A stretch of DNA of 32,000 nucleotides from Nostoc sp. PCC 7120 = FACHB-418. Its GTDB lineage: Bacteria > Cyanobacteriota > Cyanobacteriia > Cyanobacteriales > Nostocaceae. The DNA lies in NCBI RefSeq assembly GCF_000009705.1, contig NC_003272.1:2940001-2972000 (forward strand). Direction: 5' to 3'. Below the pieces are notes generated by a model. It was not told where the DNA came from. It made no database searches and worked only from the letters and a program-made list of their open reading frames with translations. How positions within the stretch are numbered: position 1 is the stretch's first letter; every line of letters starts with the position of its first letter. A program made the translations under genes and the position numbers. Below are positions 9,255 through 29,146 of this stretch, piece by piece.

Positions 9255-9294
9255 CTCTATAGGGGCAACGATTGAATTTAGTCAAGAGTCAATA

Positions 9295-9323
9295 GTCAGT
9301 GGTCAGTGGTCAGTGGTCAGTGG
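9295..9323. repeat. Tandem heptanucleotide array (GTCAGTG x4) in the petC-petA spacer
   Basis: Read directly: gtcagtg gtcagtg gtcagtg gtcagtg g. Confidence 0.9.
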
Positions 9324-12940: not shown

Positions 12941-13438
12941 TCAAAGTCCTATAACATATTTTTGCCACTCTTGATGCAATCCACTTTTGAGATGCTTGCT
13001 GACCTCAAAATAGAGACTGCTATAGGGTTGACGAGGAAGATGGCGCAAAGGCATACGTGCCTCTTGGGGTGTGCGACTGCCTTTTTTGACATTGCAACGC
13101 ACGCAAGCCGTTACAATATTTTCCCAGCTATCGCCACCGCCGCGCGATCGCGGATTTACATGATCCAGTGTCAATTCGTCCCCGGTATAGCCACAGTATT
13201 GGCAAGTATGTCCGTCACGATGCAATATATTGCGACGGGTCAGAGGAATTTCTTTATACGGAACGCGGACGTAATGACGCAACCGGATTACAGTTGGTAA
13301 CGGAAAGTCCGAGTAAAGGAACCTACCGTTATGTTCAACGCGTTCTGCTTTGCCTTTGATTAACAGAACTACAGCGCGTCGCCAGCTCGTTATATTGAGC
13401 GGTTCGTAAGAGGCGTTTAGGACTAAAACCTTACCCAT
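12941..13438 (-). CDS. HNH endonuclease family protein
   Basis: 165 aa with CQYCG...LTLDHVNPRSRGG...WENIVTACVRCNVKKG (an HNH/zinc-finger core). Confidence 0.85.
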   Translation of the reverse strand: MGKVLVLNASYEPLNITSWRRAVVLLIKGKAERVEHNGRFLYSDFPLPTVIRLRHYVRVPYKEIPLTRRNILHRDGHTCQYCGYTGDELTLDHVNPRSRGGGDSWENIVTACVRCNVKKGSRTPQEARMPLRHLPRQPYSSLYFEVSKHLKSGLHQEWQKYVIGL

Positions 13439-15181: not shown

Positions 15182-15263
15182 GCGGATGTGGCGGAATTGG
15201 CAGACGCGCTAGATTTAGGTTCTAGTTCCGAGAGGAGTGAAGGTTCAAGTCCTTTCATCCGCA
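15182..15263 (+). tRNA. tRNA-Leu (anticodon UAG), class II with a long variable arm, no encoded CCA
   Basis: The acceptor GCGGATG pairs with CATCCGC, with discriminator A. The anticodon stem is CTAGA/TCTAG with loop TTTAGGT. The variable arm is TCCGAGAGGA. The T arm is GAAGG-TTCAAGT-CCTTT. Confidence 0.9.
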
Positions 15264-15282
15264 CTATAGTTCATAGAATAAT

Positions 15283-15374: not shown

Positions 15375-16703
15375 TCACAAGCTAAATTCAGCTGCATTAT
15401 CTTCATCTACACCGATATCTTGACCCACAGCAGTAGGTTTAAAACTAGAACTATGAACTAGCTCGCTAAACTTAATGTTTTGATTGTGGTGTAGGATGTT
15501 CAACACACTAATAAAATCCCTAACAATTTCTCCTGGTGTTAATAAGGCTTCTGCGCCTAAACGACCGACGATTTCCTTGACAAATTCTTGTAATTCCTTG
15601 TTGGTCAAAATCTTGTCATAACCAAAATGGAGGGCGTGAATTTCCGTTAAACGTTGCAAAAGTGTCAGAATTTCTGCTTCACTTAAAGGATTAAGGCGGA
15701 TGACTGGCCCAATAAACTCTTGTATATCGCTTTGTTGCACAAAGCGGCTCTCTTTTGTGCGTCTACGCCAAGCTTGGTCTGCAAAAAGTCCTCGATTCGG
15801 GTCTTCTAAAAACTTTGTTGTCCCACCTATAACAATACCTAAATGTTCTGCTTTACACTGCATAGTGTCATTAAACATTGCTAGTAATCTGTTATAGTTC
15901 TTCTCACGAGTAACTGTAGTAGATATTTGGTAGAGGTTCACTGCTTCATCCATTAAAATCAGCAATCCTTTATAACCAATCTCTGCCACGAATTTAGCTA
16001 AGAGTTTAATATAGTCATACCAACTATCATCATCAATAATTACCCTTACGCCTAAAGCTGTCCTGGCTTCAGTTTTAGTATTAAATTCTCCCCGTAACCA
16101 ACGCAGTGCAGAATTTTTTAAATCATCATCGTCTAAGCGGTAGCCACGCCAATAAGCAACAATAATGCTACCAAAATCAAACCCATGAACTAAGTCTTCT
16201 ATATACTGAACAACTTCTCGAATTTTGGCTTCTACTTGGTCATCAAAACCCTCATCATTGGGACGTAGCTGAGTTTCTTTAACTACCTCTTGCTGAATTT
16301 TGTTAATCCATCCTTCTAGAATTGAAACTAACGCACCACCATCAGGACGGGTTTTGGTGGAAAGGCTACTCATCAATTCTCGATAGGTTGCTAGACCTTC
16401 ATTGTTGCTTCCTGCTAGGCGATGTTCCGAAGATAAATCAACATCACCAACTACAAAACCTTGCTCCATTGCTCGGTTACGAACCATCTGGAGGATAAAG
16501 CTTTTTCCCGCGCCATAGTTACCAATGATAAAACGAAATGCTGCTACACCTTCGGCAATATCATCGAGATTTTGTAATAGGCTTTTAAGTTCTTTTTCTC
16601 GACCAACTGCTATGTGTTCTACTCCTAATCTGGGTACTACTCCTGCACCTAGTGAATTAATCAAAGCAGTTGAAGTTTTTTTCGGGATTTTGAGCTTTGC
16701 CAT
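15375..16703 (-). CDS. P-loop ATPase of the DUF2791 / BrxD-like family
   Basis: 442 aa from the ATG at 16703 (the track's TTG at 16733 is less likely). Walker A is GNYGAGKS (16500-16523) and Walker B is LLILMDEA. The overall layout, including the C-terminal LTPGEIVRDFI block, is recognised as BREX BrxD/DUF2791-type. The family call needs an HMM check. Confidence 0.8.
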   Translation of the reverse strand: MAKLKIPKKTSTALINSLGAGVVPRLGVEHIAVGREKELKSLLQNLDDIAEGVAAFRFIIGNYGAGKSFILQMVRNRAMEQGFVVGDVDLSSEHRLAGSNNEGLATYRELMSSLSTKTRPDGGALVSILEGWINKIQQEVVKETQLRPNDEGFDDQVEAKIREVVQYIEDLVHGFDFGSIIVAYWRGYRLDDDDLKNSALRWLRGEFNTKTEARTALGVRVIIDDDSWYDYIKLLAKFVAEIGYKGLLILMDEAVNLYQISTTVTREKNYNRLLAMFNDTMQCKAEHLGIVIGGTTKFLEDPNRGLFADQAWRRRTKESRFVQQSDIQEFIGPVIRLNPLSEAEILTLLQRLTEIHALHFGYDKILTNKELQEFVKEIVGRLGAEALLTPGEIVRDFISVLNILHHNQNIKFSELVHSSSFKPTAVGQDIGVDEDNAAEFSL

Positions 16704-16937
16704 GTATTTTTCTGTACGGGATATCGATGCCAATTTTATAGCGATGAGTGGGGATTTAAATTTATTAGTCTCTAGTCCCTAGCCGCTTTTTATTGTATGT
16801 TGTGGTGCAACCCTTTAAATAATTAGAATAACATCATGCTTTTGTTGGATAATTTCCAGTCTATATGTATATAGGTTCTGGCAATAATTACACCATATTT
16901 TTATAAAAATTTTACGATGAGCTAGGGATATTAAATT

Positions 16938-18218
16938 TCAGGATGCGTATCTAGCTATTAGATGTTCATACAATGCGACTATATTTCTGACATTGGTTAT
17001 ATGTTCTGCGTAAATCTTTGGTACGTCTAGATCGGTTTCAATTATTAATTCACCAATAGTATCATTAGCTCGCTCATTGATAGAATCAATCAGCAAATTC
17101 GGCATAGTGATGTTAGCTTCAGCAATTTTTTTGATCGATGCTTGGGGATTATCTTGCCCGATTATAATTTTTAATACTTGAATTTCATGACTAGGTAACT
17201 GCTTTAATAAAGTATGCCATTCTTCAGGCAAAGCTTGGGACGTATCATTTTTAGCATCTATTTTATCTAAATTTTCGAGAATATCTGAAAAGGAAAAAAA
17301 TGTTCCTTCTTGTTCTGATGTATTAATAGAAATAGGTTCTTGATTAACGGTTTCTATTTGTTGTAAGAGTTCCCAAACTTGATTTTGCAGGATGTCTCGT
17401 TCTTGTTGCAACAAAAAGATTTCATTTTGGATTTGTTGTAATTCATTGTGGCGTTCTGTTTTTTGAATTTGTAAATAGTCAATATTTGCAGCTAGGCTTT
17501 CCTGTTCATTGCTCGTATCTAGAAGTATTTGAGATTGCTTGCTTTTCTCTAACTCTAAATCTTGAATATTAATTCGCAGTTCATAAAGTTTTTCTTCTAA
17601 TTGAGGTTTTATCCTTCCTAGCAAAGTAATACTGTTTTCAAGTTCTTGTTTTTCTTGATTTAGATCACTAATTTGATTTCGTAACTGGGTAATTTCTGCC
17701 CGACAAACATGATGGTTAGATTCTAATCTACGTTTTTCTGATGCCAGTGTAGATAAGGAATTGTTCAGTTCTATTTGATTTTCTTCCAAGCTGCAAATTG
17801 TAGATTTTAGGTTAGCAAGCTCCGATTCTATCTGTTTCCTTTGACTGGCAAAAATTCCTAAATCTCGATGCAAACTATCTCTTTGATTACGGCTATCTAA
17901 AATTTGATTTTTTAGCTGCTGTGACTCTGTGTATAATAAACTGCGATGGGTCTCTAGTTGTTCAATTTCTCTGGCTAGCCTGGACTTCAGTCCCTCGGTT
18001 TCTTGAATGCGTTTACGGAGTGAACTTAAAAGTAATAGTTCATAATTCCTCCGTCGCTTATCTACAAATAAGGCGGCTGCATAAGTAGCTACTACTGTAA
18101 TTACACCTGTGAAAAAAGCTTGACTAAAATTCCATTTGGGAACTAGGCTCAAACCAAAACTCACACTAAAGGCAACTATGCCTAAAATAAATCGATTACT
18201 TACTATGACTTGTTGCAT
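16938..18218 (-). CDS. Membrane-anchored coiled-coil protein with an acidic C-terminal TerB-C-like domain
   Basis: 426 aa. Two hydrophobic helices span about res 10-28 and 33-53. About 240 aa of heptad-like Q/E/L/N-rich sequence follow (res 58-300). The C-terminal ~95 aa (LPEEWHTLLKQLPSHEIQVL...MPNLLIDSINERANDTIGELIIETDLD) resemble my memory of the TerB-C profile. The gene is AT-rich. Confidence 0.7.
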   Translation of the reverse strand: MQQVIVSNRFILGIVAFSVSFGLSLVPKWNFSQAFFTGVITVVATYAAALFVDKRRRNYELLLLSSLRKRIQETEGLKSRLAREIEQLETHRSLLYTESQQLKNQILDSRNQRDSLHRDLGIFASQRKQIESELANLKSTICSLEENQIELNNSLSTLASEKRRLESNHHVCRAEITQLRNQISDLNQEKQELENSITLLGRIKPQLEEKLYELRINIQDLELEKSKQSQILLDTSNEQESLAANIDYLQIQKTERHNELQQIQNEIFLLQQERDILQNQVWELLQQIETVNQEPISINTSEQEGTFFSFSDILENLDKIDAKNDTSQALPEEWHTLLKQLPSHEIQVLKIIIGQDNPQASIKKIAEANITMPNLLIDSINERANDTIGELIIETDLDVPKIYAEHITNVRNIVALYEHLIARYAS

Positions 18219-28935: not shown

Positions 28936-29109
28936 ACAAGTATAAATTTTAAAAATAAATTAAGTGGTGAAGTTCGATTAACTTTAGCAGTCAAAGGCTT
29001 GAAGGACAGAATAGACTTGTTTTGTGTACCTGTGGCTACACATTGTTACTGATTTTAATCAAAATTGCTGGGAAAAAGGTAATGAGTAATGGGTAAGAGT
29101 TATGTTTGA

Positions 29110-29146
29110 TTACCAATTACCAATCACCAATTACCAATCACCAAAT
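29110..29146. repeat. Heptanucleotide array (TTACCAA/TCACCAA)
   Basis: Read directly: ttaccaa ttaccaa tcaccaa ttaccaa tcaccaa atccag. Confidence 0.9.

Follow-up and report, generated by a model that had tools for sequence, protein, structure and literature searches.

The Shango system consists of the TerB-like protein SngA, the ATPase SngB, and the DEAD/DEAH helicase SngC (Millman et al. 2022, Johnson et al. 2022). The sepT locus of Nostoc sp. PCC 7120, which is compared here with Shango and other described systems, lies in a stretch of 32,000 nucleotides of contig NC_003272.1 (positions 2,940,001 to 2,972,000 of the forward strand), hereafter called the window and numbered from its first nucleotide. 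The locus contains three genes on the minus strand, all2461, sepT (all2460), and all2459. Similar to Shango, the sepT set possesses an SngB-type ATPase (All2459), a TerB-C protein (SepT) encoded just upstream of it, and an SngC ortholog, with 48% identity to plasmid SngC. Unlike Shango, SepT has a transmembrane (TM) anchor and a coiled coil of ~245 amino acids (aa) in place of TerB_N/TerB, and the set has an extra DUF815 AAA+ gene (all2461). The set also differs in belonging to the core genome, with vertical inheritance, housekeeping surroundings, and an operon that is split in most species, and its characterised component, SepT, has a septal cell-biology phenotype. With a probability of roughly 0.5, we read sepT, all2459, all2461, and the unlinked SngC gene as the vertically inherited descendant of a Shango-like operon, which is now, in heterocystous cyanobacteria, a fixed core function of septum, peptidoglycan and division and not a mobile island of defence genes.

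The BrxD-BrxHI module of type 2 BREX, reportedly described by Goldfarb et al. in 2015, is a second point of comparison. Similar to the sepT set, this module pairs a DUF2791 ATPase with an Lhr-like DEAD helicase, and BrxD is the second-best PADLOC match for All2459. However, All2459 reaches 186.7 bits with the NCBIfam equivalog model of BrxD, for which the cutoff is 350, and PglX, PglZ, PglW, or other BREX genes are absent from the window. All2459 was therefore rejected as a BrxD equivalog, and the BrxD type assigned in a preliminary description of the window, made from the nucleotide sequence, has to be withdrawn. BnzA of Bunzi and DinB of Dionysus resemble SepT in that a Ter-family module is tied to the membrane, and the Bunzi TerB protein has TM helices. 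Nonetheless, their module is the TerB domain proper, with pore-forming toxins and other proteins as partners, whereas SepT has TerB-C only. Among cyanobacterial septal and cytoskeletal proteins, SepJ, SepI, and ZicK/ZacK are, like SepT, rich in coiled coil, placed with the divisome at septa, and involved in nanopores or filament shape, but a TerB-C tail, or an ATPase and a helicase as dedicated partners, have been described for none of them.

SepT itself was characterised by Velazquez-Suarez, Springstein et al. (mBio 2023, PMC10653889), who described two TM domains (residues 12-50), three COILS segments, and a TerB-C domain. The protein is found at the septa and the divisome, deletion of the TM domains abolishes its localisation, and its partners include MreB, SepJ, ZipN, SepF, FtsW, and RodA. 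Mutants in sepT grow normally and are altered in cell size, peptidoglycan incorporation, and septal nanopore arrays. This septal biology gives experimental support to a cell-envelope or cytoskeleton regulator, which the preliminary description had offered as its alternative reading. The same study reported a conserved synteny block all2459-all2460-all2461, a ~twofold increase of the three genes after nitrogen step-down, and the recovery of All2459 in a SepT-GFP co-immunoprecipitation, and it likened the flanking P-loop NTPases to MinD/ParA-type partition proteins. Shango, DUF2791/SngB, DUF815, phage, defense, or a helicase partner are not mentioned in its text. The searched literature contained no mention of all2459 or all2461 beyond this paper, and no link of Shango to the locus, and cyanophage assays of sepT, all2459, all2461, or the helicase were not found in it either.

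The identity of the genes was established with the published material. Five gene-specific primer cores (Table S2, PMC10653889) match the window exactly, at positions that fit all2459, all2460, and all2461; primers all2459-1 and 842KO_4B map within all2459, and 842KO_2A (19696-19718) and all2461-1 map to all2461. Data Set S2 of the same paper gives 426 aa for All2460 and 442 aa for All2459, equal to the products of the two minus-strand open reading frames (ORFs) at 16938-18218 and 15375-16703, which are both present as the preliminary description had placed them. Because the primer matches are exact and the protein lengths are equal, the genes are identified as all2459, sepT, and all2461. The coiled-coil ORF had been tentatively equated with CeaR, which is incorrect given the same primers and lengths. 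CeaR was also discarded because it is nowhere paired with Anabaena in the searched literature, and the name has disappeared from the most recent version of the Springstein preprint. The RefSeq name for the SepT protein is TerB C-terminal domain protein. It had further been held that the locus is not a named system and that the ATPase partnership is unexplained; however, the TerB-C domain, the synteny block, the co-regulation, and the co-precipitation of All2459 are already in PMC10653889. The pair, the TerB-C annotation, and the synteny are known, and the SngB and SngC assignments, the ancestral four-gene operon, its split in PCC 7120, and SepT as an analogue of SngA appear to be new relative to the searched literature.

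Components of the sepT locus

All2459 possesses a Walker A motif, GNYGAGKS (residues 61-68, nucleotides 16500-16523), and a Walker B motif, LLILMDE (residues 247-253, nucleotides 15942-15965), so that both motifs of the preliminary description were located. The G/K/S residues of Walker A and the D-E of Walker B are invariant in 81 out of 81 sequences. The Pfam profile BrxC_BrxD (PF10923) matches the full length of the protein (E 5.7e-167), which places it in the DUF2791 family by the profile test named beforehand. PADLOC detected SngB with 582.7 bits (E 1.3e-175, full length) versus 182.6 bits for BrxD, and All2459 shares 55% identity with SngB from a canonical SngABC operon on a Paenibacillus plasmid. 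The proposed kinship of the ATPase with Shango is thus borne out, and All2459 represents the DUF2791-type P-loop ATPase expected of SngB. The plasmid-borne relatives (38-55% identity, with the Paenibacillus SngB as the best) are organised in canonical operons, in which the gene for a TerB_N protein is followed by the ATPase and a DEAD/DEAH helicase. No plasmid homologue exceeded 60% identity, and the search of a phage collection revealed no relative of All2459. The start of all2459 is the ATG at 16703 and not the upstream TTG at 16733, because this ATG and the preceding ~25 bp are invariant in relatives and the UniProt entry of All2459 has 442 aa.

The hydrophobic segments of SepT span residues 4-29 and 33-53 (Kyte-Doolittle windows >1.6), in agreement with the two N-terminal TM helices described beforehand. 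Residues 56-300 consist to 62% of Q/E/L/K/R/N and match SMC-type and other coiled-coil profiles, all of them under their cutoffs. The coiled coil had been described as uninterrupted, which does not agree with the three published COILS segments or with the prolines at 205 and 295, the only two in this region. At the C-terminus, the Pfam profile TerB_C (PF15615) scores 61.5 bits against a gathering cutoff of 26.3, the outcome that the preliminary description had asked of its TerB-C-like tail. Residues 331-426 are acidic, as it had also noted, with 14 D/E versus 8 K/R. TerB_C is the sole Ter domain, since TerB_N or TerB are not matched by Pfam, and the TM segments and coiled coil take the place of TerB_N/TerB, consistent with the earlier view of a TerB-C module on a membrane-anchored scaffold. 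SepT shows the architecture by which the SepT group is recognised, namely two TM domains, a coiled coil, and a C-terminal TerB-C. Across species, identity amounts to 0.73-0.82 in the TM anchor and to 0.31-0.48 in several 20-aa windows of the coiled coil, and it is highest in the TerB-C core at 361-400 (up to 0.92 at 361-380). The coiled-coil rod is the fast-evolving part of SepT, and the TM anchor and TerB-C core are the conserved parts.

TerB-C is also the sole module common to SepT and SngA. In BLASTP, residues 311-413 of SepT align with the C-terminal 100 aa of Paenibacillus SngA (33% identity, E 4e-12), and the PADLOC model of SngA matches the C-terminal part of SepT with 69 bits, at model positions 236-526 only. 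Canonical SngA proteins all carry TerB_N. An SngA with TerB_N, with or without TerB, plus TerB-C is therefore missing from the sepT locus, but the gene order is kept, as the TerB-C gene directly precedes that of the ATPase in Shango as well as in the sepT locus. When 1.84 billion representative proteins were searched with the SepT tail, 282 relatives were obtained, of the SepT type and of the TerB_N type. The closest relatives are SepT-type proteins of 300-600 aa with two N-terminal TM segments, a coiled coil, and a C-terminal TerB-C, which form dozens of 50%-identity clusters and are all cyanobacterial where they bear a name. The farther relatives are TerB_N + TerB_C proteins of the SngA type. 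Among the canonical Shango proteins, the SngA of Bacillus cereus plasmid p1 (L082:5071-7011) bears a TM2 membrane domain at its N-terminus, so that SepT is not the only TerB-C subunit with a membrane anchor.

Since a first AlphaFold2 model of the tail, based on a shallow alignment of Nostocales only, had a predicted local distance difference test (pLDDT) of 48.6, it was unusable. With a diverse alignment of 84 TerB-C tails, the mean pLDDT was 87, with values >93 at SepT residues ~330-426, and the modelled topology has four helices, a beta-hairpin, and a long terminal helix. Foldseek gave no strong match for this model, and the best consistent ones were winged-helix domains of the LysR and MarR type (E 0.02-0.06, probability 0.98-0.99, TM-score ~0.6 on the target). 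The tail is thus predicted to have a winged-helix-like fold with a long terminal helix and an acidic surface. Because the helix in the position of the would-be recognition helix is an invariant acidic stretch (MPNLLIDSINERANDTIGELII), we infer that protein docking, or metal binding according to the Pfam description, is favoured over DNA binding. A sequence search of the PDB revealed no match for SepT, All2459, or All2461.

The third co-oriented gene of the conserved block, all2461, was missed in the preliminary description. Its product is matched by the Pfam profile PF05673 (DUF815) at residues 189-433 (E 4e-96), and its Walker motifs are invariant in 65 out of 65 sequences. Its annotated start probably corresponds to the ATG at 19718. 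DUF815 relatives outside cyanobacteria align to residues ~192-427 only, and the family is essentially uncharacterised in the searched literature. A general role of DUF815 as a Shango accessory was discarded, because the non-cyanobacterial relatives are short core ATPases without Shango context and PADLOC gave no match.

The SngC helicase and conservation across Nostocales

The window does not contain SngC-like sequence (tblastn, E <= 10), so that the SngC gene adjacent to SngB, as in Shango, is lacking here; an ortholog is present elsewhere in PCC 7120. A metagenomic cyanobacterium (L095-L097), in contrast to this split arrangement, harbours a tight operon of four genes that encode a DUF815 protein, a SepT-like protein, the ATPase, and a DEAD/Helicase_C protein of 728 aa, with an overlap of 4 bp between the ATPase stop and the helicase start. 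The ATPase is 75% identical to All2459, the DUF815 protein 68% to All2461, and the SepT-like protein 39% to SepT over the full length. The helicase is 48.5% identical to Paenibacillus SngC and reaches 827 bits with the PADLOC model of SngC. Helicases scored 827-845 bits with this model, and BrxHI was second-best with 460-475 bits. The contig also bears Carot_N, HopA1, and APH genes.

Among 80 species-level Nostocales genomes, fourteen sepT loci possess a full-length helicase directly downstream of the ATPase, fifty-nine are without one within at least 3 kb, and seven could not be assessed. SngC orthologs with 78-98% identity were found in many of the genomes whose sepT locus is without helicase. 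Two complete chromosomes carry the helicase gene by itself, away from any SngA or SngB gene, and in Calothrix NIES-2100 it is located 2.7 Mb from the sepT locus. The ortholog of PCC 7120 is BAB75030.1, which we take to be a chromosome protein; it is encoded between a T2SSE/KaiB-like pair and an ABC-transporter cluster, and it is 84% identical to the sepT-adjacent SngC of Anabaena minutissima. No cyanobacterial SngC copy is found in PLSDB, hence the gene of PCC 7120 is not on a plasmid of that collection. The absence of a helicase claimed in the preliminary description therefore holds for the window, but not beyond it, as SngC is adjacent in 14 out of 80 relatives, unlinked in many, and present in PCC 7120.

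Adjacent and unlinked copies are mixed in the helicase tree, which follows the same lineage pattern as the ATPase tree. Both are neighbour-joining trees of very similar sequences, trustworthy in their broad pattern only. Because the two share this pattern, they point to a single ortholog that belonged to a four-gene operon in the ancestor and was unlinked several times independently. Sequence comparison thus indicates that the helicase was unlinked rather than lost. The unlinked SngC gene is closely preceded, on the same strand, by a conserved ORF whose product of ~124 aa contains several hydrophobic segments (L102:7492-7866 and L098:7495-7872). This ORF was not retained as a component of the system, because it is restricted to the PCC 7120/NIES-2111 lineage and occurs at no sepT locus.

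The helicase could also be an independent housekeeping protein, and the module of PCC 7120 reduced to SepT and its ATPase, with All2459, perhaps together with All2461, assembling or turning over the SepT scaffold. This would fit the tight synteny of the DUF815-SepT-ATPase trio, the 59 out of 73 assessable loci in which the helicase is unlinked and amid unrelated genes, and its absence from the accessible part of the co-immunoprecipitation table text. However, the helicase is as conserved as the ATPase (77-96% identity within Nostocales), and the trees of both track each other. An obligate pair is also suggested by the overlap of sngB and sngC in the ancestral operon and by the homologous pairing of BrxD with BrxHI, and we regard a reduced module as very doubtful.

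In 80 out of 80 Nostocales species, sepT directly precedes the ATPase gene and has the same orientation, and the pair is syntenic well beyond very close relatives, a check that had been named beforehand. The DUF815 gene is upstream of sepT in seventy-eight, and both exceptions are contig ends; the synteny block of the SepT group is thus recovered for the pair in 80/80 and for DUF815 in 78/80. A divergent Tmemb_14 gene is present in 76 out of 80 loci. Downstream of the block, none of the 80 relatives has the alr, HNH, and tatC genes of the window. Identity to the window proteins is 84-92% for the ATPase, 69-87% for DUF815, and 56-80% for SepT, and the ATPase is more conserved than SepT, DUF815, and every neighbouring gene.

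These data bear on whether the adjacency has any meaning at all. SepT could be a structural protein, flanked by unrelated ATPases that are held in place by low regional recombination. Consistent with this, a sepT gene without ATPases at its locus exists in Richelia, and distant SepT-like genes stand alone. Nevertheless, the block is conserved and its downstream neighbourhood is not, and Shango operons of unrelated phyla show the same order of a TerB-C gene followed by a gene for a DUF2791 ATPase. Moreover, All2459 was recovered together with SepT by co-immunoprecipitation, and co-regulation of the genes has been reported. A meaningless adjacency is therefore already disfavoured and appears extremely improbable.

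The sepT gene of Richelia intracellularis HH01 (L091:7001-8251) is 40% identical to that of PCC 7120 and is located beside APH and HopA1 at the syntenic site. This species is a heterocystous symbiont with a reduced genome, which represents a natural experiment on the need of SepT for its ATPases. Two distant SepT-like proteins with TM segments, coiled coil, and TerB-C (L087:3978-6129 and L093:6229-8380) are encoded divergently beside DUF2459, with no ATPase nearby, and the DUF2459 neighbourhood may be a second conserved context for the SepT architecture.

Defence, septum and a possible mechanism

Defence systems of the classical type are expected to show a patchy, mobile, or island-like distribution, although this feature supports rather than defines them, and the sepT block occupies one position in 80 species among housekeeping neighbours. 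Domestication is favoured over classical defence because of this single site across the sampled order, the congruent trees, the high conservation, the housekeeping neighbours, and the retention of the parts after the operon broke up. Still, the set might serve against phages or plasmids, as a chromosomally fixed Shango variant in which SepT replaces SngA as a membrane sensor of envelope and septa. Upon infection, SepT would activate All2459 and SngC against invading nucleic acid, and the septal and peptidoglycan phenotypes would be side effects of removing the scaffold.

An immune function of this kind stays alive because sepT is dispensable in the laboratory, where its mutants grow normally, because the kinship with Shango is clear, and because the operon is intact in some species; the complete four genes are kept in 14 out of 80. 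PADLOC assigns its best matches to all three Shango components (SngA with 69 bits at the C-terminus, SngB with 582, SngC with 827-845). Shango was shown to act against phages in E. coli and P. aeruginosa, TerB-type proteins were proposed as membrane surveyors, and one canonical SngA has the TM2 domain mentioned above. However, one chromosomal position across Nostocales, congruent trees, 84-92% identity of the ATPase, and the lack of defence-island neighbours are atypical of defence. In addition, the components are kept after unlinking, and SepT is without a TerB_N or TerB domain. We therefore consider an immune role rather unlikely. The abortive-infection-like logic suggested in the preliminary description finds no support in this analysis.

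For the domesticated operon, a mechanism can be proposed. The ancestral gene order would have been DUF815 - TerB-C protein - SngB - SngC. SepT, whose septal biology is experimentally shown in the literature, would be the analogue of SngA. Its winged-helix-like TerB-C tail would dock the SngB-type ATPase All2459, because TerB-C is the only module shared with SngA, the gene order is alike in both systems, and All2459 co-precipitates with SepT. All2459 could then work as an ATP-driven switch or loader together with the SngC helicase, as the sngB-sngC gene overlap in the ancestral operon and the parallel BrxD-BrxHI pair suggest that ATPase and helicase act together. More speculatively, the DUF815 AAA+ protein would be a cyanobacterial add-on, possibly remodelling the SepT assembly.

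Several points weigh against the domesticated operon as described. The docking of TerB-C on the ATPase is deduced from gene order and shared modules only, and the winged-helix assignment is weak, with Foldseek E-values of 0.02-0.06. Experimental septal phenotypes are tied to SepT and none of them to All2459, All2461, or the helicase. The co-immunoprecipitation signal of All2459 is small, with three unique peptides and 12% coverage within a long list of membrane proteins, and neither All2461 nor the helicase is seen in the accessible part of the table text (PMC10653889). The sepT locus of Richelia is without DUF815, the SngB-type ATPase, and Tmemb_14, with no remnants of them, and the more distant SepT-like genes are likewise solitary, which shows that SepT can be retained where no ATPase gene adjoins it. 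Moreover, a sepT gene that is dispensable in the laboratory and yet conserved would also suit a defence gene.

Immunity and septum architecture might also be two faces of one system, in which a Shango-type nucleic-acid machine is stationed at the septa as a gatekeeper of the filament. Such a machine might, for example, respond to perturbation of the envelope or septal junctions by acting on DNA or RNA that is foreign or trapped, or by triggering a remodelling of the nanopore array so that an infected cell is isolated. We consider this quite unlikely.

Under the domesticated-operon reading, SepT gains a defined set of enzymatic partners, that is an SngB-type ATPase, a DUF815 AAA+ protein, and an unlinked SngC helicase, and the MinD/ParA analogy for the flanking NTPases is replaced by a specific and different family. 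For Shango research, the set provides a relative in which the subcellular location and the interaction partners of the SngA-like subunit are known and viable mutants exist in a genetically tractable host, and a possible role of TerB-C as the SngB docking module is readily testable in PCC 7120. If the domesticated operon is true, a defence-type operon became fixed as a core function of a multicellular lineage and was then dispersed without losing parts; otherwise, the set would represent a defence system with an unusual degree of conservation and core-genome character. Automated defence censuses may score helicase-adjacent sepT loci as 'Shango'. The finding joins two fields, cyanobacterial cell biology and phage defence.

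Flanks of the block and other features of the window

The coordinates of the block and its flanks are listed in Table 1.

Table 1. Features of the sepT block and its flanks in the window of Nostoc sp. PCC 7120.
Feature	Position	Strand	Evidence
tRNA-Leu (anticodon TAG)	15182..15264	+	ARAGORN, Rfam
all2459, SngB-type (DUF2791/BrxC_BrxD family) P-loop ATPase, 442 aa	15375..16703	-	Pfam, PADLOC, BLASTP
sepT-all2459 spacer, 234 bp	16704..16937	-	alignment with five relatives
SepT residues 331-426, TerB-C core	16941..17228	-	BLASTP to SngA, conservation, AlphaFold2
SepT residues 56-330, coiled-coil-rich rod (56-300) and acidic linker (301-330)	17229..18053	-	composition, published COILS
SepT residues 1-55, two N-terminal TM segments, membrane anchor	18054..18218	-	hydropathy, conservation, PMC10653889
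all2461, DUF815 AAA+ ATPase, N-terminal ~190 aa lineage-specific	18372..19721	-	Pfam PF05673
Divergent intergenic region all2461/Tmemb_14	19722..19831	.	tandem repeats 19728-19800

The ends of the spacer between sepT and all2459 are conserved in the alignment with five relatives, over ~40 bp past the sepT stop and ~25 bp before the all2459 ATG, and its middle is variable, with ~60 to 330 bp across relatives. The conserved ends (16900-16937 and 16704-16730) include the motif GTTGTAAAATT directly after the sepT stop, and could represent an internal promoter or an RNA element. No terminator-like site was detected on the minus strand of the spacer. Scans for promoter- and terminator-like sites performed no better than with shuffled sequence, and are hence uninformative on co-transcription beyond this missing terminator. 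The divergent region upstream of all2461 probably holds the promoter of the block, and its repeats consist of TAGTCAG (x4.7) and ACTGTTG (x4.3). The promoter scan also gave a minus-strand match at 19918-19889, which falls inside the Tmemb_14 ORF and does not count as evidence of function.

The tRNA-Leu gene is convergent with all2459, 110 bp from its stop, and marks the downstream edge of the block in the lineage of the window, where relatives carry the SngC helicase or other genes. It is missing from that position in 14 related loci, which makes this a lineage-specific junction, and it was discarded as a part of the system because it is not conserved beside the block.

The rest of the window harbours housekeeping genes, including grpE-dnaK-dnaJ, rsgA, a GH57 branching enzyme, petCA, tatC, alr, and Fur, among others. 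No window ORF encodes a helicase, TerB, or TerB_N, and TerB (PF05099), TerD, and TerC had no matches in any of them, so that a Ter tellurite-resistance cluster is not present. The preliminary description was right about the absence of helicase and TerB from the window, but not about that of nucleases and methyltransferases, as an HNH ORF and a methyltransferase-HIT ORF were found. The former is a stand-alone HNH endonuclease ORF of 165 aa at 12941-13438 on the minus strand, whose best NCBIfam match is the IscB HNH region with 72 bits, under the cutoff of 175. It was not considered part of the system, because it adjoins the sepT locus in none of the 80 relatives. The latter, at 24342-25196 on the minus strand, fuses a class I S-adenosylmethionine-dependent methyltransferase domain with a HIT-family hydrolase domain in one ORF and is unrelated to the SepT/All2459 pair.

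The plus strand encodes, at 21299-24286, a cluster of an APH-family kinase, a HopA1-family protein, and a 4HBT thioesterase. The name of the HopA1 family derives from a type III effector. These three genes remain close to the sepT block in Nostocales and Richelia, and also, in rearranged form, in the metagenomic contig L095, and are an odd conserved trio for a cyanobacterium. Between this cluster and the Tmemb_14 side of the block, the Rfam scan of the window, which returned tRNA only, had no match in an AT-rich region of ~1.1 kb (20153-21298, GC ~0.32), where no ORF of at least 60 aa is present either. Intergenic tandem repeats of heptamers (TAGTCAG, GTCAGTG, ACTGTTG, and others) were found at 553-596, 9288-9323, 19728-19800, 26888-26961, and 29109-29144, and are presumably short tandemly repeated repetitive (STRR) sequences, typical of heterocystous cyanobacteria.

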